From Cupriavidus necator (lineage in GTDB: Bacteria; Pseudomonadota; Gammaproteobacteria; Burkholderiales; Burkholderiaceae), in NCBI RefSeq assembly GCF_016127575.1, contig NZ_CP066018.1, positions 570,001 to 602,000 of the forward strand: a stretch of 32,000 nt of DNA. Reading direction: 5' to 3'. Shown in pieces: positions 12,366 to 32,000 of the stretch. Both the position numbers and the translations under genes were made by a program. How positions within the stretch are numbered: position 1 is the stretch's first letter; every line of letters starts with the position of its first letter. The notes under the pieces were generated by a model. That model worked only from the letters and a program-made list of their open reading frames with translations. It was not told the DNA's origin and made no database searches.

Positions 12366-13142
12366 TCAGGCGAGCGTCAGGCCGCCGTCGACGAGAAGGG
12401 TCTCGCCAACCATATAGGAGGCCAGGGGAGAGGCCAGGAAGATGGCTGCCCCGGCTATCTCGTGCGGCAAGCCCATGCGGCCGATGGGCACGCGCGACAG
12501 CGTTGCATCGAGCCGAGCCGGCGACGCCGTGGTCACCTTGGTCAGTTTTGTGTCCACCAGGCCAGGGGCGATGCCGTTGACGCGAATACCTTCGGCTGCC
12601 CACGCTTCACCCAGCGTACGGGTCAAGCCCACCACGCCGGACTTGGATGCGGCGTAAGCCGGGTTTCCCCGCACGGACCGGAAGCCCGCGATCGAGCTCA
12701 GCGTAATCAGCGAACCCCGGCTCTCATGGAGCATCGGCCGGAACTTGACCGCGCAGGCCATCACGCTGGACAGATTGACGTGCAGCACCTGGTCAAAGGT
12801 GACCATCTCGAACTCGGCACGCTTGTACTGGATCGTACCTTGCGCCAGCACCAGCACGTCCAGGCGTTCGAAGGCGGGCCGCACGGCGTTGACGGCCGCC
12901 TGGTCGGAAACATCCACTTGCGCGTAGTGCAGGCCAGAAAGATCTGAACCTTCGTCGAAGCGATAGTCGGACGCCCGGGCACGCGTGCCCCAGGCGTGAA
13001 CCTCTGCACCGAGTTGCCGGAATGCCTGCGCGATGCCATTGCCTATGCCGCTGGAGCCCCCCACAACCAACACGGTCTTGCCGGTGAAATCGAGGGACTC
13101 GGCAAACCGGGGCTGAGCGAGGGGAGAGTTGGAATTCGTCAT
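12366..13142 (-). CDS. SDR-family oxidoreductase
   Basis: Internal ATG 13142 (MTNSNSPLAQ...). TGKTVLVVGGSSGIGNGIA cofactor motif and YAASKSG (YxxxK) catalytic motif. 258 aa. No convincing SD, so the start is moderately uncertain. Confidence 0.85.
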   Translation of the reverse strand: MTNSNSPLAQPRFAESLDFTGKTVLVVGGSSGIGNGIAQAFRQLGAEVHAWGTRARASDYRFDEGSDLSGLHYAQVDVSDQAAVNAVRPAFERLDVLVLAQGTIQYKRAEFEMVTFDQVLHVNLSSVMACAVKFRPMLHESRGSLITLSSIAGFRSVRGNPAYAASKSGVVGLTRTLGEAWAAEGIRVNGIAPGLVDTKLTKVTTASPARLDATLSRVPIGRMGLPHEIAGAAIFLASPLASYMVGETLLVDGGLTLA

Positions 13143-13298
13143 GATTGGGCGATGTAGAGAAATGGTGTCAGTACCGGAGTCAACGCAGGACGTCCCAGGC
13201 GCAGTAGCGTTCCCCGCTTCTGGCATAGAACAGGAATTCGTGATCGCGCTGGTCCGGTTGACCCGACGAAGCCGCGGCTGCGGCCCCATGGATGCTGG

Positions 13299-14375
13299 TC
13301 ATCGCGCCTGCTTCTGCAGGTATTTCCAGGCCATCGCGGCCATGGGTCGGGCGAGCTTTCCCGTTTCGAGCGCCTGCGCCGATGACGCCGTGCCATCCAC
13401 CACCCGCTTCATGATCCCCTGCAGGATGCCTGCGGTTCGGAACATGCTGAACGCGAGATAGAAGTTCCAGTTCCCGCCGATCCTGCGCCCGGTGCGCTGC
13501 TCATACGCGCGGCGGTAAAGCGCTTCGTCCGGGATACCCAGGTTGGCCCGGTCGACACCTCCCATGCCTCGCAGCGGGCCCGGTGAAATGTGCCAGCTCA
13601 TGCAGTGATAACTGAAATCGGCCATCGGATGACCCAGCGTCGACAGCTCCCAGTCGAGCAGCGAGAGTACGCGGGGCTCGGTCGGATGGAACATGAGGTT
13701 GTCGAGCCGGTAGTCCCCGTGCACGATGCAGACCTGCTCCTCCGCTTCCTCCGGGATTCGGTCGGGCAGCGATGCAATCAGCGCATCCATCGCCGGGATC
13801 GATTCGGTTTCGGACAGCCTGTACTGCCTGCTCCATCGTTCGATCTGGCGAAAGAAATAATTGCCGGGCTTACCGTAGTCCGCAAGGCCGATGGCCTTGT
13901 AGTCCACGCGATGCAACGCCGCGATCACGCGATTCATCTCGTCATAGATCGCCGTACGTTCGCTGTTGCTCATGCCAGGCAGCGCGGGATCCCATAGCAC
14001 GCGGCCATTGACGAATTCCATGATGTAGAAGGCACGACCGATGACGGCTTCGTCCTCGCACAGGGCATACATCCTGGCCACAGGCACTTCGGTGTCGGCA
14101 AGCGCCGCCGTCACACGAAACTCGCGCTCGATCGCATGCGCCGACGGCAGCAGCTTTGCCTTCGGCGCGGGCTTGGCGCGCATCACGTAAGCCTGGCGCG
14201 GCGTGACGAGCTTGTACGTTGGATTGGACTGGCCGCCGCTGAACCGCTCAACGGTCAGCGGGCCGGCAAAGCCTTCCACATGGCGCGCCATCCAGGCTTC
14301 GAGTCCGCCCAGGTCAAAACCCAGTGTCTCCTGTGCCGGCCGCGTGCCGGCGAACGCTGAAGAAGCATTGCTCAT
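13299..14375 (-). CDS. Phosphotransferase (APH/choline-kinase fold) family protein, ACAD10/11-N-terminal/LvaA-like
   Basis: Internal ATG 14375 (MSNASSAFAG...). ...ERFSGGQSNPTYKL... nucleotide-binding lysine region and Brenner motif IVHGDYRLDNLMF, followed by LLDWELSTLGHP. 358 aa. Confidence 0.85.
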   Translation of the reverse strand: MSNASSAFAGTRPAQETLGFDLGGLEAWMARHVEGFAGPLTVERFSGGQSNPTYKLVTPRQAYVMRAKPAPKAKLLPSAHAIEREFRVTAALADTEVPVARMYALCEDEAVIGRAFYIMEFVNGRVLWDPALPGMSNSERTAIYDEMNRVIAALHRVDYKAIGLADYGKPGNYFFRQIERWSRQYRLSETESIPAMDALIASLPDRIPEEAEEQVCIVHGDYRLDNLMFHPTEPRVLSLLDWELSTLGHPMADFSYHCMSWHISPGPLRGMGGVDRANLGIPDEALYRRAYEQRTGRRIGGNWNFYLAFSMFRTAGILQGIMKRVVDGTASSAQALETGKLARPMAAMAWKYLQKQAR

Positions 14376-14388
14376 CCGGTCGCCCCGT

Positions 14389-15060
14389 TCATCGAAGCGC
14401 CGGCACGGGAGCCAGCGACCCCGCATCCTTTTCCGCGCGATCCAGCGCGCAGTACGCGTAGTACAGCTCCACACACATGAACGACCAAGTCAGGCAAGCG
14501 AGCGAAAAGAAGATCAGGTGTTGCTCGTCGTCGCCGGGGATCGTATGGAAATCATAGATGCAGGCAATGGCTTGCGCGGTCAGCAGGACCATGAACACGC
14601 CAAATGCGTGCCAGCCTTCCCCGGCGCTGAGCAGCTTCCAGGCAAACCAGGCCAGGTATACCGAAAATACCGACCACATCACCACATAGAAATACGGCCT
14701 CGGCTGCGCCAGCGCGTCGATCGACAACAGCACGATCGTCCCTGCGATCGCTCCCGCGAAGAACACGACATCCATCAGGATGGACGGCTTGTAGCGATGC
14801 GTAACGGACATCAGCCCGGCCAAGGCAACCACCGGGATGCCGAAGCCCCGGGAGAACGCATCGCAAAAGTACGAGATGCCATACGAAAACTGCACGCCAC
14901 CCAAGGCGAAAAGCAGGAAATTCGACGCGGAGAAGGTCACGATCAGCCATTCGAAGCCGAGCAGGTAGTTGCGCTGCCTGAGGAACTTCAGGCCGTGGAT
15001 CAATGACGTCATCACGAGGACGAACATCGCAAAACAGAGAAGATAGAGATTGCGGTCCAT
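14389..15060 (-). CDS. Integral membrane protein of unknown function (about 7 predicted TM segments)
   Basis: ATG 15060 follows GGGAG by 6 nt. 223 aa with seven hydrophobic stretches of 20-25 residues read by eye. I recognise no family motif. It lies 37 nt after the cytochrome c stop and 13 nt before the kinase start. Confidence 0.7.
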   Translation of the reverse strand: MDRNLYLLCFAMFVLVMTSLIHGLKFLRQRNYLLGFEWLIVTFSASNFLLFALGGVQFSYGISYFCDAFSRGFGIPVVALAGLMSVTHRYKPSILMDVVFFAGAIAGTIVLLSIDALAQPRPYFYVVMWSVFSVYLAWFAWKLLSAGEGWHAFGVFMVLLTAQAIACIYDFHTIPGDDEQHLIFFSLACLTWSFMCVELYYAYCALDRAEKDAGSLAPVPALR

Positions 15061-15097
15061 CACGACTCCCAAGGCTCGATTTGCAGGATTGGATTGT

Positions 15098-15757
15098 TCA
15101 CGGCTTTCGCGGCGCCAGACTGGCGAGGTAGGTGGCCATCGCCTTGCGGTCCTCCGGCGACGCCGCCGCGGCCACGCTTTTCATCATCCCGGTCGGTTCG
15201 CCGCGCGTGCCGGTGGCAAACGCATCAAACTGCGCCAGCAGATACTCGTAGCCCTGGCCCGCGAGGCGCGGGAACTGGTCGTGCCCCATCAGCTGGCTGC
15301 CATGGCACGCGGCGCAGTTTCCCGAGGCCACCAGCCGCTTGCCCTTCTCCAGCAATCCCGCATCGGGCGTGAAGTAACGGTTGGCGCCGGCCGGCTGCCT
15401 GGCGAAGTGGCCGGCAAGATCGTTGATCTCTGCCTCACTCATCGTCTTGGCCAACGGGCCCATGATCGGATTGGACCGCTCCCCGCTGGCGAACTTGCGA
15501 AGCTGGGCCGCCACGTACGGTGCCGGCTGGCCCGCGAGGCTCGGATAGCCCTGGTGCAGCGAATTGCCCTTGGCACCGTGGCAGCCGATGCAGGCGTCGG
15601 TCACGCGTGGCCACGGGCTGCCGTCGGCGTTATAAGCGGCAGCCGACGCCGTGATATAGCGGTCGAGGCGATAGATCCCCAGGAGGTCGTGGCCGAACCA
15701 GGCGAGCAGCCCGGCGGCAGCGATAGCGGGAACGCCCAGCCATATGCGCTTCTTCAT
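15098..15757 (-). CDS. Dihaem c-type cytochrome (cytochrome c4-like) with N-terminal signal/anchor
   Basis: ATG 15757 follows an AGGAGA SD by 5 nt. Hydrophobic N-terminus MKKRIWLGVPAIAAAGLLAW. Two CxxCH motifs (CIGCH at residues 56-60, CAACH at residues 148-152), each followed by a P-x-LAGQ motif and Met-containing stretches (PIMGP, GMMKS) as in class I/c4 cytochromes. Confidence 0.9.
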   Translation of the reverse strand: MKKRIWLGVPAIAAAGLLAWFGHDLLGIYRLDRYITASAAAYNADGSPWPRVTDACIGCHGAKGNSLHQGYPSLAGQPAPYVAAQLRKFASGERSNPIMGPLAKTMSEAEINDLAGHFARQPAGANRYFTPDAGLLEKGKRLVASGNCAACHGSQLMGHDQFPRLAGQGYEYLLAQFDAFATGTRGEPTGMMKSVAAAASPEDRKAMATYLASLAPRKP

Positions 15758-15766
15758 TTCCGTCTC

Positions 15767-17245
15767 CTAGGCGCGACGCAAGGCATTGAGAACCTGGAGG
15801 GCGGCCTGATGGCCAGAGCGCACGGCGCCATCCATGTAGCCGGCCCAGATCTCGGCCGTCTCGGTGCCCGACCAGATAAGCCTGCCGCAGGGCGGCCGCA
15901 ATGCCTCGCCGTGGGTGCTCCAGAAGCCCGGCGGAATCGCGGAGACACAGGTGATCGTCCAGGGATCGGCACGGCCCCAGTCGTGATCGTGGTATGACAC
16001 CGGCGCCAAGGCTTCGCTGCCGAAGGCCTGCGCATAGATCTCTGACAGGAACCTCTGCGCCGCCTTGTGATCCGAGGGAACCGACGCATTCGAGATGAAG
16101 GCATTGATAACGCCGAGCTCGCCCCCCGGCGGCGAGTTGTCGAAGGCCCACAGAATGGGCCCGTCGACCTGGAAGATGTGTCCGTTCAGTCCCTTGTCGC
16201 GCCAGAACGGACGGGAATAGACCATCGCCGTCTTCCGCGCCGGCGAATGGGCGGGCCAGGCGCGCTGCAGCGCTGCACGCTTCTGCGGCAGCGGCGGATC
16301 GAACTGCAACTGCTGGCACAAGGGTGGACTCAGTGCCATGATGACCTGGCGCGCGCGCACTTCGCCCTGGTCCGTGTGCAGCGTGACGACCTCGCGGTCC
16401 CAGTTCGAGATCCGCCGGACGGGGCTCGACAGGCGCACCCTCTTCCCCAATGCCTGCGCCATCCTGACGCAGAGGATCTGCGAACCACCGGCAAATCGCG
16501 TTTCCTGGGCGCTGTGCTTGATGCTGTCCAGCTGCATATAGTCGCAGGCGGCCGAGTTGATCATTGACAGGAAATGGAGCATCCCCATTTTTGCCGGCAT
16601 CACGCCACCGGAAAGCGCGATGCTCGCATTCCACCCCGTTCGGTCCTCGGGCTTGATGTTCTGCTTCGCCAGCCAGTCGCCGACCGACAGTTTGTCCAGT
16701 TCCACGACCTTCGGTGATTTCCACGGCGCGCCCGACGGCACGTCGCGCGAAAGCACGCTGAGCCTGCCACCGATCGCCTCGTCGCTGCCGAATGTGCCCT
16801 TCAGGTCGACCTCCAGACGACCGTCACCGCCGAGGATGACCGTGTTCCCCTTGTAGTAGCTGGGAAACGTGCCCACATCGAGTTCGCGCGCCAGATCGGC
16901 CACCGCCGTCTGGCCGGGGCCGATCCACTGTCCCCCGACTTCGGACACCTGTCCCGAACCCACATCGTAGTTAAGCGTCCGCCCGCCCACGCGATTGCGC
17001 GCTTCCAGCACGACAAAGGACTCGCAGCCTGCCTGGCGCAGGTCCCTCGCGGCGGTCAGGCCCGCCAGGCCCGCGCCGATGATGGCGACGTCGAGGACGT
17101 CTTCGGGCGTGCCGGCTTTGGCCGCCGCCTTGGCCGGCCCCGGGCTCAAGCCGATGGTTCCTGCCGCCGTGGAGGCGCCGGCCATTTTCAGCAATTGCCT
17201 TCGCTGCGTGTTGATTGAAGTGTCCGAGGACGAAATCTTGCCCAT
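15767..17245 (-). CDS. Tat-exported flavin-containing amine oxidase family protein (MAO/putrescine-oxidase-like)
   Basis: 492 aa. After the signal region comes DVAIIGAGLAGLTAARDL...VLEARNRVGGRT...VGGQWIGPGQT, resembling the MAO/putrescine-oxidase clade. The stop is 9 nt upstream of the cytochrome c ATG. Confidence 0.9.
   Translation of the reverse strand: MGKISSSDTSINTQRRQLLKMAGASTAAGTIGLSPGPAKAAAKAGTPEDVLDVAIIGAGLAGLTAARDLRQAGCESFVVLEARNRVGGRTLNYDVGSGQVSEVGGQWIGPGQTAVADLARELDVGTFPSYYKGNTVILGGDGRLEVDLKGTFGSDEAIGGRLSVLSRDVPSGAPWKSPKVVELDKLSVGDWLAKQNIKPEDRTGWNASIALSGGVMPAKMGMLHFLSMINSAACDYMQLDSIKHSAQETRFAGGSQILCVRMAQALGKRVRLSSPVRRISNWDREVVTLHTDQGEVRARQVIMALSPPLCQQLQFDPPLPQKRAALQRAWPAHSPARKTAMVYSRPFWRDKGLNGHIFQVDGPILWAFDNSPPGGELGVINAFISNASVPSDHKAAQRFLSEIYAQAFGSEALAPVSYHDHDWGRADPWTITCVSAIPPGFWSTHGEALRPPCGRLIWSGTETAEIWAGYMDGAVRSGHQAALQVLNALRRA
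17126..17245 (-). other. Twin-arginine (Tat) signal peptide coding region of the amine oxidase
   Basis: MGKISSSDTSINTQRRQLLKMAGASTAAGTIGLSPGPAKA/AAKA. The T-Q-R-R-Q-L-L-K stretch matches the (S/T)-R-R-x-F-L-K pattern and is followed by a mildly hydrophobic h-region and AxA sites. This depends on the 17245 start being used rather than Met21. Confidence 0.7.
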
Positions 17246-17269
17246 AGTGCTTCGCTGTTTCCTGTCATC

Positions 17270-17638
17270 TCATTGCGGGTCGAGCGCAAACCTGCGAACG
17301 CTCTTCCCGCTTCTCATGCTTCTGTGCCGGACAGCCCAGACGAGCCCACGCAGCGCCTGTTGATCGACTTGTTGGACTGCGGCTGTACACTGCTCCAGCA
17401 CCTCCTGCTCCGGGAACAGCATGAGTTCGGCCGCGCTCCCCAATACGAGCGCGATATCGAATGGCGAGCCTGTCGCGAGCGCGTGCCGCAGAAGGCTCGA
17501 CAAGCGGCGTTCGATGGCGGCACCGTCCGCGGCGTCCATTCGAATCCTTGCGACCGATGCCCGGATGAAGTGGAGCAGCTCACTGGAGCCAGGCTGATGC
17601 CCGAAGGCGGTCGTGGTCGAGCAGGAGCTTGACGTCAT
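17270..17638 (-). CDS. Hypothetical protein (122 aa), no recognisable family
   Basis: It fills the 480-nt gap between the ACAD and the amine oxidase on the same strand. ATG 17638 follows GGGAAAG by 6 nt (the track ORF starts at TTG 17656). About three quarters of third-codon positions are G/C by my hand count, lower than neighbouring genes but above non-coding expectation. A competing + strand ORF (17273..17632) exists. Confidence 0.4.
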   Translation of the reverse strand: MTSSSCSTTTAFGHQPGSSELLHFIRASVARIRMDAADGAAIERRLSSLLRHALATGSPFDIALVLGSAAELMLFPEQEVLEQCTAAVQQVDQQALRGLVWAVRHRSMRSGKSVRRFALDPQ

Positions 17639-17725
17639 CGCGGCTTTCCCATGCAAATGGCTGATTGGTCTGGCGCGCTCCAGCCGCCTGCAGCGACGGC
17701 CGGTATCCCGCGCTTGACCGGGCGC

Positions 17726-19015
17726 CTACTCCCGCGCCCACCCATTCTGGTAGAGGCGCCCGGCCAGCACGCCCAACCGCGACGTGAGCACGTAGTTCTC
17801 GCCGTCCTCGATCAGCGCCGAGCGCGCGTCGCGGAACAACTTCTCGATCGGGAACTCGCGCGTCGTGCCGTTGCCGCCGAAGAGCTGAAATGCCTCGTGC
17901 GTGATCTTCATGGCCTCCTCGGTTACGCTGACCTTGGCCTGCGCGGTCGCATAAGGGTGGCTCTGCGGAGACAGTCGCGCGAACGCCAGGCTGCGCCGGG
18001 CGATGGCCCGTGCCATCTCGAGCCGGCGCAGCATCTCGCCCACGCGCAACTGGGTCATCTGGTGTTCCAGCAGCAGCGCCCCGCCCTGCTTGCGCTCATG
18101 GCAATAGGCAAGCGCAAGTTCGAACGCGGCGCGGGCCGCACCGACAAAGACCTGGCACATGTGAGTACCTGCGAACGACCATGTAGAAGCCAGGTTTCCG
18201 AGGTACTCATCCTTCAGCGCGATGGCGAAGCGCTTGGGCACCCTGACGTTATCAAAATAGATCTCGCCCTGGGGCAACGCACGCTGGCCGATCTTGTCCA
18301 GCGGTTTGCCGCGCGAAATGCCAGGCAGGTCGAGCGGCAGGATCAGGCCGATGCCGTTGGTGAACGCGCCGTGCTCATCCGTCCCGTGGAACCCGTCGCC
18401 ATAGTCCGCCGCCATGTAGGCGAGCGCCACCTGTGCCACCGACCCGTTCGACACCCATGCCGAGCTCTGCCCGTTGATGACGATCTCGTCGGCACCGACC
18501 CTGGCGGTCACGTTGCCAACCGGCTGCTTTCCGCCTGCGCTCAGCTCTTCGCGGTAGAGGATCGCGGCATCGGAGCCACGGTCAGGCTGCGTATTCATCC
18601 AGCAACCGATCTTTCCAGTGCACATCTCGATCAGTTCCTGATTGCCGAGCGACTGCGCCATCGTCAGCGGCATGGTCGCAGCGCCGAGCGAAACGGCCAG
18701 ACCCGAATCCCCCCAGCCCAGCTCTTCGCCGATCAGGGACTCGATGCGCACCGCGACCTCCGGCGGGAACTGCGCGATGAGTTGCGGATCGAGCCCGAGC
18801 TTCGCGCTCTCCATCATCGCCGTCCAGTACGGAGAACCCGCAGCGATGACGTCCTCGGGCGCCATGCGGTCAAGCTCCCTGCCGATCGGCCGCAGCACAT
18901 CGCGCGCAAAGCGATGAACCGTCTGCTGAATCGCGTTTTCCTCTTCGCTCAGCGGCGTCTCGAATCCGGTCAGGCCAACTACCGGCAACGCCGCGGTCTT
19001 GTGCAATCGAATCAT
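17726..19015 (-). CDS. Acyl-CoA dehydrogenase family protein
   Basis: The true start is ATG 19015, 5 nt after a strong AGGAGGAG SD (MIRLHKTAALPVVGL...). 429 aa. ACAD N-, middle and C-terminal domains, with ...AFQLFGGNGTTREFPIEKLFRDARSALIEDGENYVL near the C-terminus. The 107-codon extension in the track is rejected. Confidence 0.9.
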   Translation of the reverse strand: MIRLHKTAALPVVGLTGFETPLSEEENAIQQTVHRFARDVLRPIGRELDRMAPEDVIAAGSPYWTAMMESAKLGLDPQLIAQFPPEVAVRIESLIGEELGWGDSGLAVSLGAATMPLTMAQSLGNQELIEMCTGKIGCWMNTQPDRGSDAAILYREELSAGGKQPVGNVTARVGADEIVINGQSSAWVSNGSVAQVALAYMAADYGDGFHGTDEHGAFTNGIGLILPLDLPGISRGKPLDKIGQRALPQGEIYFDNVRVPKRFAIALKDEYLGNLASTWSFAGTHMCQVFVGAARAAFELALAYCHERKQGGALLLEHQMTQLRVGEMLRRLEMARAIARRSLAFARLSPQSHPYATAQAKVSVTEEAMKITHEAFQLFGGNGTTREFPIEKLFRDARSALIEDGENYVLTSRLGVLAGRLYQNGWARE

Positions 19016-19082
19016 TCTGAGTCTCCTCCTGTCATGGAAGCATGCGTGGCGGCTTGCCGCAGATACGGCACGCCCATCGCTC

Positions 19083-19100
19083 ATCGTGTTAGAACACGAT
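19083..19100. promoter_or_regulatory. Inverted repeat ATCGTGTT-AG-AACACGAT (8-bp arms), candidate TetR-B operator upstream of the ACAD gene
   Basis: Read directly, 68-85 nt upstream of the ACAD ATG and just downstream of the TetR-B terminator. It is followed by two copies of CCAAACATA (19102-19110 and 19121-19129) and a short AACAT-N5-ATGTT repeat, all in an AT-richer stretch. Confidence 0.4.
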
Positions 19101-19135
19101 ACCAAACATAGGTCATGTTGCCAAACATACAAGCG

Positions 19136-19162
19136 AAAAAAAAGACAGGGTATTCCCTGTCT
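19136..19162 (-). terminator. Rho-independent terminator downstream of TetR-B
   Basis: On the minus strand: AGACAGGG-AATA-CCCTGTCT, a perfect 8-bp stem with a 4-nt loop, followed immediately by TTTTTTT. It lies 38 nt after the TetR-B stop codon (19200-19202). Confidence 0.8.
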
Positions 19163-19199
19163 CCTGGCGTTGGCACGCAGTAGCGTTGCTTTGTCGCCG

Positions 19200-19883: not shown

Positions 19884-20052
19884 CCTGTCTGCCTTGATTC
19901 AGGGCTTTTCAGCCCTTTGTAAGGAATCGCGCCAGCGGTAGGCTGGGCGGGCATCATTATATCTGACGCCCGTCGACGCGCGTGGCGCCCGGGTCGCTTC
20001 GGCGGGGGCTTACCTCCTTTGTCCTGATTGCGACGGCAATGATCGGCGAGGC

Positions 20053-24323: not shown

Positions 24324-24355
24324 CCGCCCCGGGCCTGAAGAGCAGGCCGGGGCGG
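24324..24355 (-). terminator. GC-rich stem-loop 9 nt downstream of the reductase stop, putative intrinsic terminator or intercistronic processing/attenuation hairpin
   Basis: CCGCCCCGG(G)CCTG / loop AAGAG / CAGGCCGGGGCGG gives a 13-bp stem with one bulged G. There is no U-tract on the minus-strand transcript (it is followed by GAAAAATG), so it is not a canonical terminator. Confidence 0.4.
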
Positions 24356-24363: not shown

Positions 24364-25497
24364 TTACAGATGCGAAACCGTCGCACGAGCCAGCCCGCGC
24401 TGCTCGAGGAAGCCGAGCAGGTAGCGGTGTCCGAAGGCCTTCGAGCCGGATGCGAAGCCGACCTTTGCGGTGTCGCCGTCGAGTAGTTTGATGACGCCTG
24501 CCGTCTGGATAGCCCCGGTGGCGATGTATGGCGTGGTCCCATGCACGGTCGCCCGCACCGAAGCGACCTGACCGCGGCCGATGGCGAAATCGACGGTGCG
24601 CTGCAGCGTAGTGCGTTCCCTTGGCGGCATGGCCGGCGTGGTCGAATCAACGATCTGCTTCAGCACCGCGTCCTGCTGCTCGCGGGGCAGGTGCTTGTAC
24701 TCTGCTTCCCACTTCTTGCCCAGCGCATGCACTGTCTGCATCGCGTTGTTGTCGTAAAAACCGACACTGGAGATGCAGCTGCGTACGCGCGGATCGTTTT
24801 CGAAGTAGACCGGCAGCGACGTACCGCCCCACGGCAGACAGAACACCGGTTGCATGAAGGCAGGATCGACCACATTGAACGACGCATCCGCCGCATATGG
24901 CACCAGCTTCTTCTCCCAGAGGTAGCAAGCCTCGTGGCGATAGCCTTCAAAGATCGTCGCGGTCGAACCCACGCTCACGCCGGCACCGCCGCTACGCGGG
25001 CCGCGCGCCAACGTCGCGGTTTCCAGGGCATCGACGCCGGGTGTCTCCAGCGCCAGCTCCGCGGCAATCTCGGCGAACGTGTACATGTAGGCATTGGACG
25101 GCGACAGCAGCAGCCCGGCCTGCCGGTACAGGTCGCCGAATTGATCGCGCGCCCGGCGGATGTGCGGCTGCTCGCCCGTGGTGTCGAGGTAATGGCATCC
25201 CGCCTTGAGCGCCGCTTCGACGCCAACGAGCCCGACCGTGGAGAATGGCCCGACGGTGTTGCATACCACCCTCGCGCCGCGGAATGCATTCACCAGGGCA
25301 TCGACGTCATGTTCCGCCTCGATGAGTTCATAGTTTGCCGATTCCAGGCGCACGACACGCTGTGCCATCATTTCCTTCGCCCGGCCTGCGTTGCGCGCCA
25401 CGGCCGTAAAAGGGATGCCCTGGTCGATCAGCCAGTCCATGATCAACATGCCGGTGTAGCCGCTTGCGCCATAGACGACGACGGGGTGCTTTGCCAT
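24364..25497 (-). CDS. Saccharopine-dehydrogenase-like NAD(P)-binding reductase family protein
   Basis: ATG 25497 follows an AAGGAGA SD by 6 nt. N-terminal Rossmann MAKHPVVVYGASGYTGMLIMDWL. The 377-aa length and layout fit the saccharopine dehydrogenase-like / trans-acting enoyl reductase-like family. The substrate is not inferable. Confidence 0.8.
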   Translation of the reverse strand: MAKHPVVVYGASGYTGMLIMDWLIDQGIPFTAVARNAGRAKEMMAQRVVRLESANYELIEAEHDVDALVNAFRGARVVCNTVGPFSTVGLVGVEAALKAGCHYLDTTGEQPHIRRARDQFGDLYRQAGLLLSPSNAYMYTFAEIAAELALETPGVDALETATLARGPRSGGAGVSVGSTATIFEGYRHEACYLWEKKLVPYAADASFNVVDPAFMQPVFCLPWGGTSLPVYFENDPRVRSCISSVGFYDNNAMQTVHALGKKWEAEYKHLPREQQDAVLKQIVDSTTPAMPPRERTTLQRTVDFAIGRGQVASVRATVHGTTPYIATGAIQTAGVIKLLDGDTAKVGFASGSKAFGHRYLLGFLEQRGLARATVSHL

Positions 25498-25589
25498 GGT
25501 TTGTCTCCTTGAGAATTGTGTCTGACAAGTGATTGGGTTGGAAGGAATGCCGCCCTATGAAGGGACGACTGGACAATACTTTTGGGTGC

Positions 25590-26570
25590 CTATCGCCTGT
25601 CCGGGCCGTCGTCCTGCAACGGACCCGCCATTGACATCAGCAGCGGCCGCGAACCGTTCGCTAGCACTGCAGTCAGGGACTCCTGCCCTGCGCGCTGCGT
25701 AACCGAGAACGTCTTGCCGCCGTCCTTGCTGTCGAGTACGGTCCCGGCCATGCCGACGACGACGATGCGGCCGTCAGCAAGCTCCGCGATCCCGGTCAGC
25801 GATTGGGTGGTATGCGAGTCCACGCGCTGCCATGTCTTACCGTCGTCGCTGCTGCGGTACAGGTGTCCTCGCATGCCGCAGACCAGAAGAGAGCCGTCGG
25901 GAAGTGAGTGCCCGTACCACAGCGAGCCGTTGTCGCCAGTGGTCGACGCCTGCCACGACTTGCCTCTGTCGGCGGAGCGGAAGATGGTGCCGCCTTCGCC
26001 AGCGATGAAGAGCGATCCGCGGCCGGATCCGAACATGTGCAGTAGGTGACGGTCCGCGTTTTCACCCGCCTCCACCTTGATCTCGGACCAGGTCCGGCCG
26101 GCATCGCGTGTTTCGATAGCCCAGCCGTACAGCCCTACGGCGATGCCATGCTCCGGACTGTCGAAGTAGAGCGAAAGGATCGGCTGCTCTGCGCCCCGCT
26201 CGGCACGCAAGAGCATCCACGTCTCGCCGCCATCCTGTGTGCCAAGCACAACGCCATCGTGCCCCGCCGCATAGCCGCGCCGCGCATCGATGAACTGAAC
26301 GGAAGTCAGCAGCGAGCGGACCGGCACCATCCTTGCTTGCCGGAACTTGATGCCGTCATCAGAAAGGAGGATGACGCCGTGGTCGCCGACGGCGACCACG
26401 CGGTTGCCGGCACGCGCAGACGCCAGCAGCGGTGCGGCGACCGCATTGGACACCTGCCGGGCCGGCTCCAGGGTCGGCCACGGAGCTGCGGCAGCGGTCT
26501 CCACCGCCCGCGACGGGCACACCACGCCCAAGGCGATCGCGACAACAGGTAAAAATCGGTGCAGGTTCAT
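25590..26570 (-). CDS. Exported BNR/Asp-box repeat beta-propeller protein (Ycf48/photosystem-II-assembly-factor-like)
   Basis: Signal peptide MNLHRFLPVVAIALGVVCPSRA. Five Asp-box-like repeats read directly: TQDGGETW, TRDAGRTW, SADRGKSW, SSDDGKTW, SKDGGKTF. 326 aa. Confidence 0.8.
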   Translation of the reverse strand: MNLHRFLPVVAIALGVVCPSRAVETAAAAPWPTLEPARQVSNAVAAPLLASARAGNRVVAVGDHGVILLSDDGIKFRQARMVPVRSLLTSVQFIDARRGYAAGHDGVVLGTQDGGETWMLLRAERGAEQPILSLYFDSPEHGIAVGLYGWAIETRDAGRTWSEIKVEAGENADRHLLHMFGSGRGSLFIAGEGGTIFRSADRGKSWQASTTGDNGSLWYGHSLPDGSLLVCGMRGHLYRSSDDGKTWQRVDSHTTQSLTGIAELADGRIVVVGMAGTVLDSKDGGKTFSVTQRAGQESLTAVLANGSRPLLMSMAGPLQDDGPDRR

Positions 26571-26594
26571 GGGAGATTGACGCCTACTTGCGTC

Positions 26595-28973
26595 TCAGTG
26601 CTTCAGGATTTCCGGCATGCGCACTGGGCCGCGCCGGGGAAAGAACTTCTCCAGCACCGCCGCGAACGCGGGCAGGAGGGTGATGGCCATGACCATGTTG
26701 ACGAGGAACATGAAGGTCAGCAGAGCTCCCATGTCGGCCTGGAATTTAAGGCTCGAGAACATCCAGGTCGCCACACCGACCGAGAGCGTAATGGCCGTGA
26801 ACACGGTCGCCAGCCCTGTCTCCTTCAGCGCGACCGCAAGCGCGTCGGTGAACGCAAGACCGTTTGCCAGTTGTACCTGCAGGCGGTTGTAGATGTAGAA
26901 GGCGTAGTCCACGCCGATGCCGACCGCGAGCACCATCACCGGCAGCGTCGCCACGGTCAGGCCGATCTCAAGCTCCTTCATGAACCAGTAGCCAATCCAC
27001 GTGGCCACGGTCAGCGGCAGGCAGCACGCAACCATCGCCCGCCAGTCCCGATACACAAGGAAGACCAGAATGAGGATGGCGGCGTAGACGTACAGCATCA
27101 TCGGCAACTCGCTGGCCTCCAGCACTTCATTCGTGGCTGCCTGGACGCCAGCATTGCCGCTTGCCAGCCTGACCGTGACGCCATCAAGCCGGTTGGACTC
27201 GCGGAACTGCTTGACCGCCGCCACCACGGTCTTGATCGTCGTGGCGCGGTGATCGGGCAGATAAAGGTTGACGCCTTGTACTCGGCAGTCGCTCGACGAA
27301 AGCCCGGCGATGCGGTTGTTCACGCCCTGGAACTGCGAGCCGAGCCCGCGGGGGTCCCGCGTCACGGTGGCCATCTTCGGACTGCCTTCGTTCATGCCGG
27401 CGTTGTAGAGTTTGAGCTGGGCGGCCAGCGAATCGGTGGACACCACGCCGGGTACGCTGCCCATGCGCCAGGCGAAGTCGTCGACGAACAGGAACTCGTC
27501 GGCGCGGGAGCAAACCTCGCCATGGCGATCGGGCGTGGCCTCGAACACCACGGTGAGCCAGTCCAGGCCGACGTCGAAGCGGCTGACGATCGCGGCGACG
27601 TCCAGGTTGTAGCGGGAATCCGCGCGCAATTCCGGCGCCCCGGCCTGGAGACTGCCCACGTGCCTGTCCTGGCTCTGCCAGAACGCAAGGCCGAAAACCA
27701 CTGCGCCGGCGACGGTCACGATCAGTGCGTTCCGCGGCTGGGCGATCCGGGCCACCGCCCCCAGCCATCCGCTATGACTCTCGCGCCGCGCCAGCGCCCG
27801 TTTCGCGAACTCAGGCGTGAACCGGAAGTACGACGCCGCCACCGGCAACATCATCAGGTTGGTGACGATCTTGTAGCCCACGCCGATGGCCGCGGTGATC
27901 GCCAGTTCTCGGATCATCGGGATCGGGATGAGAATAAGCGTGACGAAGCTCGCCAGCGCGGTGATCAGCGCCAGCGATCCGGGAATCAGCAGGCCGGTGA
28001 AGCTGCGCCGGGCGGCAATGGCGGAGTCGGTACCCTGGGCGACCTCGCGGACGATAAAGTTGATCTGCTGGATACCGTGTGAGACACCGATCGCGAACAC
28101 CAGGAACGGCACCAGGATGGCGAGCGGGTCAAGCCCATAGCCCAGCAGGTGCAGCGTGCCGAACTGCCAGACCAAGGACACGAGCGAGCAGCCGAGCGGC
28201 AGCAGGGTCAGGCGCACCGACCGGCAGTACCAGTAGACCGCCAGCCCGGTGAGCAGGAAGGCGATGCCGAAGAAGCGCGTCACGTCCGCTCCGCGGTCGG
28301 CAATGTCGCCGATCTGCTTGGCGAAGCCGATGATCTCGATCTCGACCTGGTCGTTCTCGAACGGGCGCCGGATCTTTTCCTCGAGCAGCCGGTTGAACTG
28401 GATATAGTCGAGCTTCTTGCCCGTGCGGGGATCGACGTCGGCCAGTTCGGCGGTGATCAGGGCGCTGGACTGGTCGCGTGCGACCAGGGTCCCGACATGG
28501 CCGCCGGCCATGGTGCGCTGACGCATCTTGCCGATGACATCGGCGGAGAGCTTTTCCGGCACGATATCCCCGCCTGCCACCGCCTCTGCCCGGAAGCCGT
28601 CCTCGGTGATCTCGGTGAAGAAGACATTCGGTGTCCACAGCGACGTCACGCTGGTGCGATCTACGCCCGGAAGATAGGTGACGGCCTCGGTCACCTTGAG
28701 GACCTGCGTAAGCGCCGCCGCATTCCAGACATCGCCCTTGCGGGCATGCACGGCAATGGTCAGCCGGTTGGCACCGAAGAGCTTGTCGCGGAACTGCTCG
28801 AAGGTCTTGATGTACTCGTGGCCTTGCGGCAACTGCTTCTCGAAGCCGGCTTCGAGGTGCAGCTTCGCGCCGAGCACGCCCATCAAGGCGGTGAATCCTG
28901 CCAGTGCGAGCAGGAAAGGAAGGCGGTGCCCGAACAGGGCCGCTTCCAGACGGGTTATCAAGCGTGAAAGCAT
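26595..28973 (-). CDS. RND-superfamily permease (MMPL/HpnN-like, about 790 aa)
   Basis: 792 aa with two repeated halves. Each half has a large periplasmic loop followed by a cluster of TM helices (e.g. ...FFGIAFLLTGLAVYWYCRS... and ...VYAAILILVFLVYRDWRAMV...). The ATG (28973-28971) overlaps the DUF1302 stop by 1 nt (TAATG). Confidence 0.9.
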   Translation of the reverse strand: MLSRLITRLEAALFGHRLPFLLALAGFTALMGVLGAKLHLEAGFEKQLPQGHEYIKTFEQFRDKLFGANRLTIAVHARKGDVWNAAALTQVLKVTEAVTYLPGVDRTSVTSLWTPNVFFTEITEDGFRAEAVAGGDIVPEKLSADVIGKMRQRTMAGGHVGTLVARDQSSALITAELADVDPRTGKKLDYIQFNRLLEEKIRRPFENDQVEIEIIGFAKQIGDIADRGADVTRFFGIAFLLTGLAVYWYCRSVRLTLLPLGCSLVSLVWQFGTLHLLGYGLDPLAILVPFLVFAIGVSHGIQQINFIVREVAQGTDSAIAARRSFTGLLIPGSLALITALASFVTLILIPIPMIRELAITAAIGVGYKIVTNLMMLPVAASYFRFTPEFAKRALARRESHSGWLGAVARIAQPRNALIVTVAGAVVFGLAFWQSQDRHVGSLQAGAPELRADSRYNLDVAAIVSRFDVGLDWLTVVFEATPDRHGEVCSRADEFLFVDDFAWRMGSVPGVVSTDSLAAQLKLYNAGMNEGSPKMATVTRDPRGLGSQFQGVNNRIAGLSSSDCRVQGVNLYLPDHRATTIKTVVAAVKQFRESNRLDGVTVRLASGNAGVQAATNEVLEASELPMMLYVYAAILILVFLVYRDWRAMVACCLPLTVATWIGYWFMKELEIGLTVATLPVMVLAVGIGVDYAFYIYNRLQVQLANGLAFTDALAVALKETGLATVFTAITLSVGVATWMFSSLKFQADMGALLTFMFLVNMVMAITLLPAFAAVLEKFFPRRGPVRMPEILKH

Positions 28974-30919
28974 TAGAAGGAGGTGGTCATGCTGAGGGAG
29001 ACAAAATCGCGGTCGCGCAGCAGGTTGCTGCCGCTACCGCCCCAGTTGTGCGTGTAGTCGAGGCGCATCTTTGTCTCCGGCTTCGTCTTGAAGTCGAGGG
29101 TCGCGCCGATCACTGCGGCGCCCGCGCCCCGGATGAAGCCAGGCAGCGCCGTGGCCGAATAGCCTCCGATGCCTTGCATGACGGCGATGTCCGGTGACAG
29201 CGATGCCCGCGTGCCGAAGATGTTGGGATAGGTCACCGAGGCTGCCAGCACCATCCCCGCCGACAACTTGGTGGGCAGCGTGTAGTCGGCGGTGACCGCA
29301 TACGGAATCCCGGCGTTGAGCCTGAGCTTCGGGTAATACGCCAGCGCACCTTCCGCGGTGATCGTGCCTTCGGACGCGCCCAACGCGCGCAGCAGCCAGC
29401 CAAACGAGCCCGAAGGCGACATGATGTGGATGCCGGTCAGGTGGAGCTGATAGTGCTGCGTGTCGATCGCCCCGCGGCAACTGCTTCCGACCGGCTTGAC
29501 CGCAAAATCGGCCAGGGCGTTGCAGTAGTAGGGGTTGGCCGGATCGATGACCGTGGTCGGATCGATGGCGACGCTGTCCCGCGGACGGTACGACAGCTCG
29601 GTGCCGATCGCCCATTCGCCAACCTGGAAGTTGTACGAGAGGCCGAACAGGTCGCGGTTCTTGCCGTAGTCGAGGGACGCCTGCCAGCCGAACGGGTTGC
29701 TCGTCGTGTTGACCACCTGGTAGCTCACGAACGGCACCTTCTCGCTGTAGTGGTAGTAATAGAGGCCGAGTTCGTTGCCGCTGTCGGGGAACTTGTAGCG
29801 CATCGCCATCCCACCTTGCCCGTTGTTGCTCGGATTGTTGTCCGGGCCGCGCGGGATGAAGGTGCCGGTTCCGACCAGGGGCCCGACCGGATTGGTATTG
29901 GGGTTCGCCAGCTCCCCGGTGCTCAGGCGGCGGTTGTAGGGCATCCCGGTCGCGGGATTGATGCCGACGATCCGGGTCCCCGTGTCGCCGATCGTGCCGG
30001 TGGGAAGCGGGGCCAGCCCCGACGCAGCCAGCGCGCCATTGACGGCTGAAGTCGGGATATAGAAGCCCCGTCCGCCCTTGCCGAGGAAGTCGCTGGTCGA
30101 AAAGAAGGTCCCGGGCGCGTCGAACTTGAAGCTGTTCCACTTCCACTGGTAGAAGGCCTCCAGGCCGAGGTCCTTGCCGAGTGAAGTGCTCGCAGAGACC
30201 ATGGGCGCGGGGATGAACAGATTTTTAAGCGGCGTTCCCGGCTGGTGCGCGGACGGCAGGTAGATCGCGTTGATCGCGTTGATACCGCCCGGGATGTAGA
30301 GGTTTTCACCCCAGTTCAGCACCTGGTTGCCGACCCGGACACGCGCCTGCTGGTCGCCGACGTCGAATTCCTTGGTGATGTAGGCGTCGAGCAGACGCGG
30401 GTCGCTGGTGGCGAAGTTTCGCGCATCCGAGTCGAGATCGGTTCGTCTGGTGTGGGCGGTCGCAAAGTCATAGTTGACGACGCCGCGCACCAGCCCGCTC
30501 CACCCGTTGGTGCCCTTGACATAGAGGTCGCTGGTCCACTGCGCATTGGCCGAAACCGGCTGCCAGCGCTTGTAGTTCAGGTTGCCGTCGTCCTGATTCA
30601 GGCGCAGCGTATCCAGGTTCGACGAGAAGACAGACGGGTTACTTTTCTGCAGCGGCGTAGGCGCGTCGCCGACACAGCCGCCGTTGTCGTTGCCGACAAA
30701 GCTGCAGTTCGTTTTCGACGTTCTCATCGCTGCACCAAACGAAACCGTCGAGTCGAAGGCTACCGCCCAGCCGTTGTCGAGCGTCCACTGTGCAGCGTAA
30801 GCCGAGCCGGCATCCGCCATCGCCAGCAGGCCTACGATTACCGAGCGGGCCAGCTTCCGTTCCATCCGCATCCCCGCGGCGGCTTGCGCCGCCGCTGCTG
30901 CAACATCACGCAGTTTCAT
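28973..30919 (-). CDS. DUF1302-family outer-membrane beta-barrel protein
   Basis: ATG 30919 follows a GGGGAGA SD by 5 nt. Signal peptide ending ...LLAMADAGSAYA/AQW. 648 aa, rich in Gly/Asn/Tyr with alternating beta-strand patterns. C-terminal ...FVSLSMTTSF with terminal Phe, the OMP signature. The family assignment is from sequence recollection, not a search. Confidence 0.8.
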   Translation of the reverse strand: MKLRDVAAAAAQAAAGMRMERKLARSVIVGLLAMADAGSAYAAQWTLDNGWAVAFDSTVSFGAAMRTSKTNCSFVGNDNGGCVGDAPTPLQKSNPSVFSSNLDTLRLNQDDGNLNYKRWQPVSANAQWTSDLYVKGTNGWSGLVRGVVNYDFATAHTRRTDLDSDARNFATSDPRLLDAYITKEFDVGDQQARVRVGNQVLNWGENLYIPGGINAINAIYLPSAHQPGTPLKNLFIPAPMVSASTSLGKDLGLEAFYQWKWNSFKFDAPGTFFSTSDFLGKGGRGFYIPTSAVNGALAASGLAPLPTGTIGDTGTRIVGINPATGMPYNRRLSTGELANPNTNPVGPLVGTGTFIPRGPDNNPSNNGQGGMAMRYKFPDSGNELGLYYYHYSEKVPFVSYQVVNTTSNPFGWQASLDYGKNRDLFGLSYNFQVGEWAIGTELSYRPRDSVAIDPTTVIDPANPYYCNALADFAVKPVGSSCRGAIDTQHYQLHLTGIHIMSPSGSFGWLLRALGASEGTITAEGALAYYPKLRLNAGIPYAVTADYTLPTKLSAGMVLAASVTYPNIFGTRASLSPDIAVMQGIGGYSATALPGFIRGAGAAVIGATLDFKTKPETKMRLDYTHNWGGSGSNLLRDRDFVSLSMTTSF

Positions 30920-30949
30920 GCCTGTCTCCCCGTGGTTCTCTTTTTTGGC

Positions 30950-32000
30950 TTATCGTGTGGTGAACCGGCGCAGGCCGTCCGGCTCGAAGGTCTTCTCCTT
31001 CAGGCGCCCTTCCCTCGCGGCGAGCCAGTCAGGCTCCTTGTGGCCGGCGACGACTCGGTCGAGCACGGCGCGGCGGGTCTGGTGGTCATAGCTGGTATTG
31101 GCCGCCCAGACGCAGGCCGGCACTTCCCAGGCCATGTAGGGACCCATCTCGGTGGTGCGCCAGACCTTGCCCTGCGCGTCGTACATGTCCTCCACCAGGA
31201 TCGTCCACGTGTCCTCGTCGATGTAGAACACGCGCTTGGGGAAGGTATGCCGCATGCCTTGCTTGAGCGTGGCCTCGACCACCCACATCCGGTGCAGCTC
31301 ATAGCGCGTCAGGTCGCGGCTGAGGAACTTCGGCTTGACGACTTCATCGACCTTGTTCGCCGAAGAGTTGACCCGGTACGTGTTGTAGGGCACGTACATC
31401 TCCTTCTTGCCGGCCAGCTTCCAGTCATAGCGGTCTAGTGGGCCGTTGAACTGCATGTACTGGTCGACGGTCAGCAGGTTCTCGGTGTTGAGCTGCGGGG
31501 CGTCGTACTGGTATGTCGGCGCGCGGCGCACGCGGCGCTGGCTCGCGAAGTACAGCCAGACGTCGTTGGCCTCGGAGAACTTGTACTGCGTCAGGGTGGC
31601 ATCCCCCGCGATCGAGGGCGGGCTGGTAAACGTGTTGAGGTACAGGCTCTCGATGCCGCGGGCGTCGTCGACGCCCTTGTTCGACGGCGACCACATCGGC
31701 GACATCTGCCATTCCTGCTGGCCAAGCGGCTCCCCAATGCTGTCGGTGCCCTTCGGCGGGATGTAGCCCGCATAGCTCATCTGGAATCCCTCTCCTTTCC
31801 AGTGCAGCTTGTGGTTCCACATGGCTTCGGCGCCGTTCTGCGGAATCGGGAACGGCACGGCGGCGCCGATCGCCTCGGCGAGGTCCTGGCCGTTGGCGCC
31901 AAGCTTCGCCGTCGTTGCGTTCTTCTTCGTCCGCTCGTAGAAGAAGTCGGGGAAACCGCAAGAACGGTGGGTCGGATAAACATCCATCCGATAACCCGGG
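30950..32000 (-). CDS. DUF1329-family periplasmic protein (LolA-like fold family), N-terminally truncated by the window edge
   Basis: Stop TAA at 30950-30952. The frame stays open from the first Met (31987) to the window edge (...PGYR-MDVYPTHRS...), and no signal peptide is present in the visible part. The gene therefore starts beyond 32000. The sequence style (YPTHRS..P.FFYE.TKKNA...DRYDWKL.GKKEMYVPYN) matches my recollection of DUF1329. Confidence 0.8.
   Translation of the reverse strand, partial: PGYRMDVYPTHRSCGFPDFFYERTKKNATTAKLGANGQDLAEAIGAAVPFPIPQNGAEAMWNHKLHWKGEGFQMSYAGYIPPKGTDSIGEPLGQQEWQMSPMWSPSNKGVDDARGIESLYLNTFTSPPSIAGDATLTQYKFSEANDVWLYFASQRRVRRAPTYQYDAPQLNTENLLTVDQYMQFNGPLDRYDWKLAGKKEMYVPYNTYRVNSSANKVDEVVKPKFLSRDLTRYELHRMWVVEATLKQGMRHTFPKRVFYIDEDTWTILVEDMYDAQGKVWRTTEMGPYMAWEVPACVWAANTSYDHQTRRAVLDRVVAGHKEPDWLAAREGRLKEKTFEPDGLRRFTTR

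Follow-up and report, generated by a model that had tools for sequence, protein, structure and literature searches.

The stretch of Cupriavidus necator DNA analysed here (the window; 32,000 nt, positions 570,001 to 602,000 of contig NZ_CP066018.1) carries a cluster of 16 genes, all on the minus strand, that spans 12366 to 32000 and leaves room for no other convincing coding open reading frames (ORFs). The cluster brings together an envelope transport module, a block of acyl-CoA enzymes and a periplasmic amine oxidoreductase with its cytochrome c, and we consider whether these parts serve one function. The G+C content of the window is about 64%. Start codons were picked by ribosome-binding sites and domain boundaries. 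The features of the cluster, in the direction of transcription and with the match on which each assignment is based, are as follows.

30950..32000, minus strand: DUF1329, LolA-like periplasmic protein (Pfam PF07044, E 1.7e-119, from profile position 30)
28973..30919, minus strand: DUF1302, predicted outer-membrane protein, AmeA-like (Pfam PF06980, E 1.4e-122; role after PMC6394551)
26595..28973, minus strand: RND/MMPL-type inner-membrane transporter, HAE3-like, AmeD-like (Pfam MMPL and ACR_tran)
25590..26570, minus strand: BNR/Ycf48-like beta-propeller, AmeC-like (Pfam PSII_BNR, E 6e-20)
24364..25497, minus strand: DUF5938, saccharopine-dehydrogenase-type NAD(P) domain (Pfam PF19362, E 2e-50, and Sacchrp_dh_NADP)
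22679..24235, minus strand: acyl-CoA ligase, long-chain fatty-acid-CoA ligase-like (Pfam AMP-binding, E 2e-71)
21414..22655, minus strand: thiolase of the SCP-x or "lipid-transfer protein" type (Pfam Thiolase_C_1 and Thiolase_N; NF006102, 303 bits)
20053..21402, minus strand: DAO-family FAD amine/imino-acid oxidoreductase, cytoplasmic (Pfam DAO, E 6e-66)
19200..19883, minus strand: TetR-family regulator with a BetI-type C-terminal domain (Pfam TetR_N and TetR_C_6)
19085..19165, minus strand: conserved promoter cassette of about 80 nt with four elements (intergenic-region comparison)
17726..19015, minus strand: acyl-CoA dehydrogenase (ACAD) (Pfam ACAD domains; best PDB match medium-chain acyl-CoA dehydrogenase, MCAD, E 4e-30)
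17270..17656, minus strand: small conserved ORF of 122-128 aa, no known family (no Pfam or NCBIfam match)
15767..17245, minus strand: flavoprotein amine oxidoreductase of the monoamine oxidase (MAO)/putrescine oxidase family, exported by the twin-arginine (Tat) route (Pfam Amino_oxidase PF01593, E 1e-55)
15098..15757, minus strand: di-haem c4-type cytochrome c, 219 aa (two Pfam Cytochrom_C domains; CxxCH at residues 56 and 148)
14389..15060, minus strand: multi-pass membrane protein with 5-7 transmembrane segments, no known family (no Pfam or NCBIfam match)
13299..14375, minus strand: APH-family small-molecule kinase of the LvaA/ACAD10/ACAD11 clade (PDB 3dxp, E 2e-188)
12366..13142, minus strand: classical short-chain dehydrogenase/reductase (SDR) oxidoreductase (Pfam adh_short_C2, E 6e-53)

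Each of the family assignments made in an earlier note on this DNA was confirmed by Pfam. No NCBIfam equivalog model reached its cut-off for the cluster proteins, so that they can be named at the family level only, and an Rfam scan of the window gave no matches. The 5' end of the DUF1329 gene lies beyond the window edge; the full gene, present in our locus L001, encodes 454 aa. The cluster itself runs past 32000 (L001 4414-8169): directly upstream of DUF1329, on the same strand, are genes for PhyH, of the Fe/2-oxoglutarate dioxygenase family, and RidA, of the imine deaminase family. Transcribed divergently from these are a second amine oxidoreductase of the Tat type (516 aa; identity by cross-hit about 60%) with a di-haem cytochrome c of 224 aa, and then an M23 peptidase. 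The earlier note missed PhyH, RidA, this second oxidoreductase/cytochrome pair and the promoter cassette that the units share.

The run of minus-strand genes with short gaps that the same note described was borne out and every gap value was reproduced: 30 nt between DUF1329 and DUF1302, a 1-nt overlap (TAATG) between DUF1302 and RND, 24 nt between RND and BNR, 23 nt between ligase and thiolase, 11 nt between thiolase and DAO, 24 nt between the small orphan ORF and the amine oxidoreductase, 9 nt from there to cytochrome c, 37 nt from cytochrome c to the membrane protein and 13 nt from the membrane protein to APH. The spacing from SDR to pntAA is 109 nt. Only three points of punctuation had been counted, which is too few, as there are also wider gaps between BNR and DUF5938 (92 nt), DUF5938 and ligase (128 nt), DAO and TetR (169 nt), TetR and ACAD (184 nt), ACAD and the orphan ORF (69-87 nt) and APH and SDR (156 nt). 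The last value presumes an SDR start at 13142, which is favoured by the shorter APH-SDR spacing in relatives. One of the three points, a G+C-rich hairpin 3' of DUF5938 (24324..24355, minus strand), is a real structure (-28.3 kcal/mol, z = -2.9), but it is followed by GAAAAAUG and the lack of a U-run rules it out as a canonical intrinsic terminator; it is possibly an mRNA-stabilizing or attenuating element.

Conservation of the cluster was assessed by aligning 22 homologues of the Tat oxidoreductase, using them to retrieve 80 loci with 10-kb flanks (one genome per species) and mapping the window proteins onto these by tblastn. All 80 loci, which come from at least eight genera, encode the oxidoreductase, cytochrome and membrane protein together, and the cytochrome gene is adjacent in every one. 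At least two genes of the envelope module lie within 10 kb in 39 of the 80, at least three of ACAD, DUF5938, ligase and thiolase in 42 (at 66-93% identity) and either DAO or the PhyH-RidA pair in 73; the envelope module and the acyl-CoA block are both missing from only four loci. The TetR gene at 19200..19883 has orthologues, 52-86% identical, in 27 loci. The earlier note had held that its reading would fail if the sub-blocks never co-occurred in other genomes. They do travel together, in the 80 loci and in three further ones.

Gene order varies among Cupriavidus, Paraburkholderia, Burkholderia, Pseudoduganella, Pseudomonas, Marinobacter and Nevskiaceae. The Pseudomonas mandelii type reads RND-BNR-ACAD-DUF5938-ligase-thiolase-DAO-oxidoreductase-cytochrome-membrane protein, followed by a divergent second oxidoreductase/cytochrome pair, TetR, RidA and PhyH. 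The order in the Burkholderia cepacia complex is oxidoreductase-cytochrome-membrane protein-PhyH-RidA-DUF1329-DUF1302-RND-BNR, with no acyl-CoA block within 10 kb, and that in the P. putida group is DUF1329-DUF1302-RND-BNR-DAO-a second membrane protein (TM')-oxidoreductase-cytochrome-membrane protein-aldehyde dehydrogenase (ALDH). Two loci anchored on DUF5938 hold the set on one strand, the whole of it in the first: Paraburkholderia L090 (PhyH-RidA-DUF1329-DUF1302-RND-BNR-second oxidoreductase-second cytochrome-DUF5938-ligase-thiolase-DAO-TetR-ACAD-ETF-oxidoreductase, where ETF is the electron-transfer flavoprotein) and Pseudoduganella L091, where the set is nearly whole. The envelope modules beside the core belong to divergent lineages (24-77% identity), and these together with the differing orders argue that the association has been assembled or maintained repeatedly and is not just inherited synteny.

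In P. aeruginosa the core cluster is accessory; it lies beside tolB-pal-queC and adjoins a phage-type integrase and a TraI_2 relaxase (L093 3843-7051), which suggests that this copy is carried on an integrative element. Such neighbours fit spread of the cluster as a functional unit. The GMC oxidoreductase gene of the same locus is in three fragments. Our literature search found no description of the cluster as a unit, which is not proof of novelty.

Comparison of the intergenic regions brought out the promoter cassette. Its first element is ACAGGGAATACCCTGT (ACAGGG-GAATA-CCCTGT), a hairpin or palindrome with T8 at 19140-19165; the second is a -35-like TTGGCA (TTGNCA across copies); the third and fourth are an operator-like palindrome, ATGACCTA-N3-TTGGTA, and GTTCTA. 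The full cassette occurs three times in this genome, before ACAD in the window and before PhyH and DUF1329 (L001 6760-6840 and 8475-8560, both plus strand), and its 25-nt core is found once in the window against 0.00 expected. The related loci, 1.65 Mb in all, hold 64 occurrences of GGGAATACCC, where about four are expected from base composition. All but one of these sites (63/64) fall within the 400 nt that precede a cluster gene, namely the oxidoreductase (20), PhyH (20), ACAD (17), the membrane protein (3), DUF1329 (2) or DUF5938 (1).

The hairpin at 19136-19162 had been taken for the canonical terminator of the TetR gene. Hairpin and T8 are real, but they belong to the cassette and recur with it before other units, in one case in a divergent promoter region that lacks an upstream gene and where the element folds weakly; a role as a mere terminator was revised accordingly. 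The first element folds to -15.9 kcal/mol before ACAD, but its other two copies in this genome fold no more stably than shuffled sequence. That it is conserved in sequence though weakly folding elsewhere is suggestive of a site bound by a protein. Only Burkholderiaceae have the cassette; the versions of the cluster in Pseudomonas and Pseudoduganella are without it and have a different TetR, whose window orthologue is at 5680-6339 and whose family is also found in the Marinobacter versions. Judged by its sequence and placement, the shared cassette very probably points to one regulon. A partial copy is present at 6563-6573 (plus strand), ahead of a porin gene (6704..7948).

Two of the trio at the centre of the cluster, the oxidoreductase and the cytochrome, resemble a published class of enzyme and its partner. 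The oxidoreductase has the fold of the flavoprotein amine oxidoreductases (FAOs), with an FAD-binding N-terminus; among PDB sequences it matches a bacterial MAO (8p84, E 1e-86), then putrescine, cyclohexylamine and monoamine oxidases (about 1e-55) and NicA2 (1e-24), and it is 97-99% identical to its nearest database relatives, one of them labelled Cupriavidus necator (97%). Its twin-arginine leader, TQRRQLLKMAG...AKA, contains the motif RRQLLK, with Arg15 and Arg16 invariant in the 22 orthologues; the Pfam TAT_signal score is 18 bits, under the 22.7-bit cut-off. Akram et al. (2025; PMC12224317) described as "clade 1" a group of Tat-bearing FAOs, from B. metallica, B. stagnalis and P. aeruginosa, that are encoded beside membrane-bound di-haem c4 cytochromes of about 20 kDa, show a reaction with O2 about as slow as that of free flavin and were proposed to be dehydrogenases. 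The earlier suggestion of periplasmic amine oxidation agrees with this class. B. metallica and B. stagnalis are among our 80 loci (L035 and L025) and their orthologues are 75-77% identical to the window enzyme, which very likely belongs to clade 1. The di-haem cytochrome would be its electron acceptor. The N-terminus of the cytochrome is moderately hydrophobic, under the hydropathy threshold, and may possibly act as a membrane anchor. In the membrane protein Asp67, Arg71, Asp170 and Trp192 are invariant in an alignment of 84 sequences and Arg208 is conserved at 0.99. There is only one conserved histidine, which rules out a haem-b electron carrier. Neither this protein nor the wider cluster is described in the clade-1 paper (PMC12224317).

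The pairing of a Tat-exported flavoprotein of the FAO family with a neighbouring cytochrome c gene is shared with NicA2/CycN and Pnao of Pseudomonas putida S16 as well as with clade 1, though NicA2 itself is distant from the window enzyme and 8p84 and the putrescine and cyclohexylamine oxidases are closer. A like logic, as judged by description, is found in SphB/SphC of P. aeruginosa, where a Tat-exported periplasmic flavoprotein and a cytochrome c act on a lipophilic amino alcohol; SphC is FMN-linked (flavin-dependent) and SphB mono-haem, and both are needed for sphingoid-base metabolism (PMC11893366; PMC3900636). The two also differ. The cytochrome here is di-haem, control there is by the AraC-type SphR whereas the window holds no AraC regulator, no homologue of the aldolase SphD or the porin SphA was recognized here, and in P. 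aeruginosa the window enzyme has a homologue that is accessory and apparently borne on an integrative and conjugative element (ICE).

Copies of the small orphan ORF, 65-98% identical, are present in 11 loci and lie between ACAD and the amine oxidoreductase in ten of them. In 26 loci a second membrane protein without a known family, of about 240 aa, stands beside the trio; in some it follows the membrane protein and in others it immediately precedes the oxidoreductase (examples are L019 12883-13617 and L074 9168-9887). It is absent from the window, where the orphan ORF (128 aa) occupies that spot.

The envelope module encodes all four AmeABCD-type families contiguously (by Pfam; junctions of 30, -1 and 24 nt). 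The RND protein has about ten hydrophobic segments, and its best NCBIfam model is TIGR00921 (HAE3), at 130.7 bits against a cut-off of 351.9; the N-terminus of BNR is hydrophobic and signal-peptide-like; and the DUF1302 protein is also present in assembly GCA_051903385.1. AmeABCD of Castellaniella defragrans is a tetrapartite HAE3-RND system that is implicated in monoterpene tolerance and behaves as an exporter (PMC6394551). Clusters of the DUF1302/DUF1329/BNR/RND type have been linked to growth on Tween 20 and on fatty esters, and P. putida needs the module to grow on the latter (bioRxiv 2020.07.04.188060), and Price et al. (bioRxiv 072470) proposed, from pleiotropic mutant phenotypes, that the four-gene module exports a cell-wall component. 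AmeABCD and the Shewanella and Pseudomonas clusters share with the window the same four families and a setting in a catabolic island for a hydrophobic substrate, which upholds the earlier description of a hydrophobic-substrate envelope module (PMC6394551). The order here, DUF1329-DUF1302-RND-BNR, differs from the DUF1302-DUF1329-BNR-RND of AmeABCD, and an Ame-like order is found in the Marinobacter loci. Here the module is tied to amine oxidoreductases, whereas the Ame, Shewanella and Pseudomonas modules are tied to terpene, ester or aromatic pathways.

Of the enzymes between the envelope module and the trio, DUF5938 is 79-98% identical across beta- and gamma-proteobacteria. It has no match among PDB sequences, and its AlphaFold2 model matches carboxyspermidine dehydrogenase and saccharopine dehydrogenase/reductase over the full length (TM 0.6-0.7, E 1e-12, identity 12-14%). 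Proteins of this fold carry out NAD(P)-linked chemistry on amine-aldehyde Schiff bases. The ligase scores 432.6 bits against NF004837 (cut-off 476). The nearest NCBIfam models to DAO are aminophosphonate oxidoreductase and L-pipecolate oxidase, both under cut-off, and its PDB relatives are distant only. As read from the sequence, the ACAD active site is atypical, with an Asp base and a GTHM[CSGA]Q segment: Asp replaces Glu at the position equivalent to MCAD Glu376 (IEDGEN, found in 35 of 43 ACAD sequences), and the GTHM[CSGA]Q segment is kept in 40 of the 43, the window protein included. In Paraburkholderia, ETF genes sit between ACAD and the oxidoreductase.

Each of these parts, the periplasmic cytochrome-linked amine dehydrogenase, the Ame-type envelope system and the lipid acyl-CoA module, is of a kind already known. 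We think it probable that the stretch is the larger part of one co-regulated regulon that breaks down, or detoxifies, a hydrophobic compound bearing an amine. The DUF1329/DUF1302/RND/BNR module would handle this compound across the outer membrane and periplasm. The Tat flavoprotein would oxidize a C-N bond in the periplasm and, as in the published class, pass two electrons via the di-haem c4 cytochrome to the respiratory chain and not to O2, with a second such flavoprotein/cytochrome pair available just upstream of the window. The membrane protein might, speculatively, dock the pair or move the carbonyl product inward. An aldehyde or ketone product would be converted to an acid, by ALDH in the P. 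putida-group versions and by an enzyme encoded elsewhere here; the ligase would activate the acid, and ACAD (ETF-linked), the NAD(P) enzyme DUF5938 and the SCP-x-type thiolase would then shorten it in a manner like beta-oxidation. DAO, PhyH and RidA would act in the cytoplasm to remove or process another nitrogen function, and TetR and the cassette before three transcription units would coordinate expression. The amine/lipid pathway put forward in the earlier note is supported in part.

Several observations weigh against this proposal. The co-occurrence counts are limited by the 10-kb flanks. In solution the reaction of the clade-1 enzymes with their cytochromes was only modest (PMC12224317), and the direction of transport is disputed, with export in Castellaniella set against a need for the module in growth on fatty esters in P. 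putida. The DUF5938 model is of moderate confidence (pLDDT 66, pTM 0.69). In Pseudomonas sp. TH41 ACAD-DUF5938-ligase-thiolase occur without amine genes, by a wax-ester synthase, an esterase and a sulfatase, which indicates a generic lipid-processing module recruited to the amine system rather than an amine-specific one. Finally, the window holds no aldehyde dehydrogenase or enoyl-CoA hydratase. The absence of ALDH had been recognized from the start as a weakness, but an ALDH gene directly follows the membrane protein in nine P. putida-group loci (nearest model MdlD, under cut-off). In most of the nine, genes for a GMC oxidoreductase, an esterase, a ligase-like protein and a Baeyer-Villiger-type monooxygenase (BVMO) are close by, and such neighbours suggest that the product of the oxidoreductase can be an aldehyde or a ketone.

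The same neighbours bear on the nature of the substrate. BVMO, esterase, GMC oxidoreductase and ALDH are the enzyme set of the cyclohexylamine-to-adipate route, and their presence in the Pseudomonas versions would suit an alicyclic, secondary or polyamine-type amine (cyclohexylamine-like, N-alkylated or a conjugated polyamine) in place of a lipid-like primary amine. DUF5938 would then act on a Schiff-base C-N bond, as its full-length resemblance to carboxyspermidine dehydrogenase and saccharopine reductase would allow, and DAO, PhyH and RidA would carry out stepwise N-dealkylation. Putrescine and cyclohexylamine oxidases are among the PDB relatives of the oxidoreductase, and PhyH, RidA and DAO are duplicated in the window beside an MFS transporter and a cytoplasmic amine oxidase (78..5672). 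We regard this alternative as rather unlikely: the AmeABCD-type module, the long-chain-type ligase and the SCP-x thiolase speak for a bulky hydrophobic moiety, DUF5938 also appears in a lipid context without amine genes, and the structural argument from DUF5938 draws on a model of moderate confidence with 12-14% identity to its matches.

It is more improbable still that the stretch is a mosaic of independent modules (transporter, beta-oxidation block, amine dehydrogenase and kinase) brought together by island accretion, with no single pathway. Several promoters and a regulator gene lie within the cluster, APH and SDR clearly joined it late, the P. aeruginosa cluster is apparently on a mobile element, and the blocks are found apart in some genomes (the B. 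cepacia complex is without the acyl-CoA block within 10 kb and TH41 has that block alone). Against accretion stand the recurrence of the association in at least eight genera, with varied gene orders and divergent envelope lineages, and the identical cassette before the PhyH, DUF1329 and ACAD units, which in relatives also precedes DUF5938 and the oxidoreductase. Turnover, remodelling or export of an endogenous envelope aminolipid in place of an external nutrient, with the module exporting an envelope component as in the proposal of Price et al. and the exporter behaviour of AmeABCD, seems to us very improbable, given that the enzymes encoded with the module (ligase, ACAD with ETF, thiolase, ALDH, BVMO, esterase) serve degradation, that the accessory and apparently ICE-borne status of the cluster in P. 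aeruginosa is unlike that of a housekeeping envelope function, and that TetR-type repression is typical of inducible catabolism.

The preferred reading, a co-regulated regulon for a hydrophobic amine, can be taken a step further. The trio and the DUF1329/DUF1302/RND/BNR conduit might together form an undescribed respiratory "lipid-amine dehydrogenase" machine. It would draw amines that act on membranes (sphingoid bases or long-chain alkylamines, for instance) out of the envelope, deaminate them at the inner-membrane surface and deliver the electrons to the respiratory chain. We hold this to be doubtful; if it is true, it would provide the first physiological substrate for the clade-1 FAO dehydrogenases, a cargo for the DUF1302/DUF1329 systems and a role for DUF5938. 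A membrane-active substrate (a sphingoid base, a surfactant amine or a biocide breakdown product) would have a bearing on host-defence evasion and bioremediation and would add a respiratory, H2O2-free route of amine oxidation in soil bacteria. The wider interest is that three widespread families without an assigned substrate or function (the clade-1 amine dehydrogenases, DUF1302/DUF1329/BNR/RND and DUF5938) are joined in one conserved, apparently co-regulated and horizontally mobile cluster. With a recognizable candidate operator and a TetR in the cluster, three questions become one, namely the inducer of the cassette.

The kinase at the downstream end requires separate treatment. APH is near-identical to the structural-genomics entry 3dxp, and the kinase domain of ACAD11 (8v3v) matches residues 19-349 with E 4.7e-77; this strong match places it in the LvaA/ACAD10/11 clade of 4-hydroxyacyl-CoA kinases (PMC12440821). 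In ACAD10/ACAD11 and the Lva pathway such a kinase is paired with a phospho-eliminating ACAD (PMC12440821), and removal of a hydroxyl group by the window kinase and ACAD had been suggested on similar lines. The resemblance to lvaABCDE of P. putida and to mammalian ACAD10/ACAD11 extends to an SDR, a ligase, a small orphan ORF and an Asp-containing ACAD (PMC12440821). APH is a genuine member of the LvaA/ACAD11 type, but the window ACAD lacks the phosphate-binding motif and shares only 25% identity with the partner of the core APH paralogue, an ACAD of the HCMR type. Its IEDGEN aligns with FADGPDEV and its THMCQ with HHCMR, and a serine replaces the upstream arginine, so that both arginines of the R...HCMR phosphate site are absent. 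The motif test and the low identity rule it out as an LvaC/ACAD11-type partner of APH.

Nor are kinase and ACAD conserved together. An APH orthologue (at least 79% identity) is present in five of the 80 loci, all Cupriavidus, and distant APH proteins (48-50%) in six more, whereas ACAD is present in 42; SDR orthologues at least 84% identical are found only in the Cupriavidus loci L007-L011. In those six the distant APH comes with an SDR, and such a set also lies beside the Pseudoduganella cluster, there with an HCMR-type ACAD. From this distribution the kinase and SDR are clearly lineage-specific additions. We conclude that the kinase has been added as an accessory more than once and that its partner is an ACAD other than the one in the window. 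APH and SDR would probably feed a 4-hydroxy- or 4-oxoacyl-CoA side product to an LvaA/ACAD11-type route, with the ACAD partner elsewhere. The core APH paralogue, 70-78% identical, is encoded in a 3HCDH-ECH-His_Phos_1-APH arrangement in Ralstonia, Cupriavidus and Paraburkholderia. An ACAD gene follows directly in Paraburkholderia and two genes on in Ralstonia, and none follows in C. necator; the Paraburkholderia ACAD reads R...HCMR with the catalytic Asp. The arrangement 3HCDH-ECH-His_Phos_1-APH(-ACAD) at L087 and L089 (Ralstonia and Paraburkholderia) echoes the phosphatase-kinase-ACAD architecture of ACAD10.

Outside the cluster the window holds a paralogous "soluble-amine" module on the plus strand (78..6339), in which PhyH, RidA and DAO are 59%, 64% and 68% identical to their counterparts. 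Its genes are as follows.

78..914, plus strand: PhyH
about 943..1347, plus strand: RidA
1442..2875, plus strand: MFS transporter
2904..4280, plus strand: DAO
4368..5672, plus strand: cytoplasmic Amino_oxidase
5680..6339, divergent: TetR

Judged by these families, the neighbourhood is densely devoted to amine oxidation. On the downstream side the transhydrogenase genes pntA/pntB (9296-12256) follow the cluster, as they do in 13-15 Paraburkholderia loci (for example, L040 14043-17064), an adjacency that may reflect retained synteny or a link to NADPH supply. In Paraburkholderia an EthD-like ORF of 98 aa lies between the cluster and pntA/pntB.

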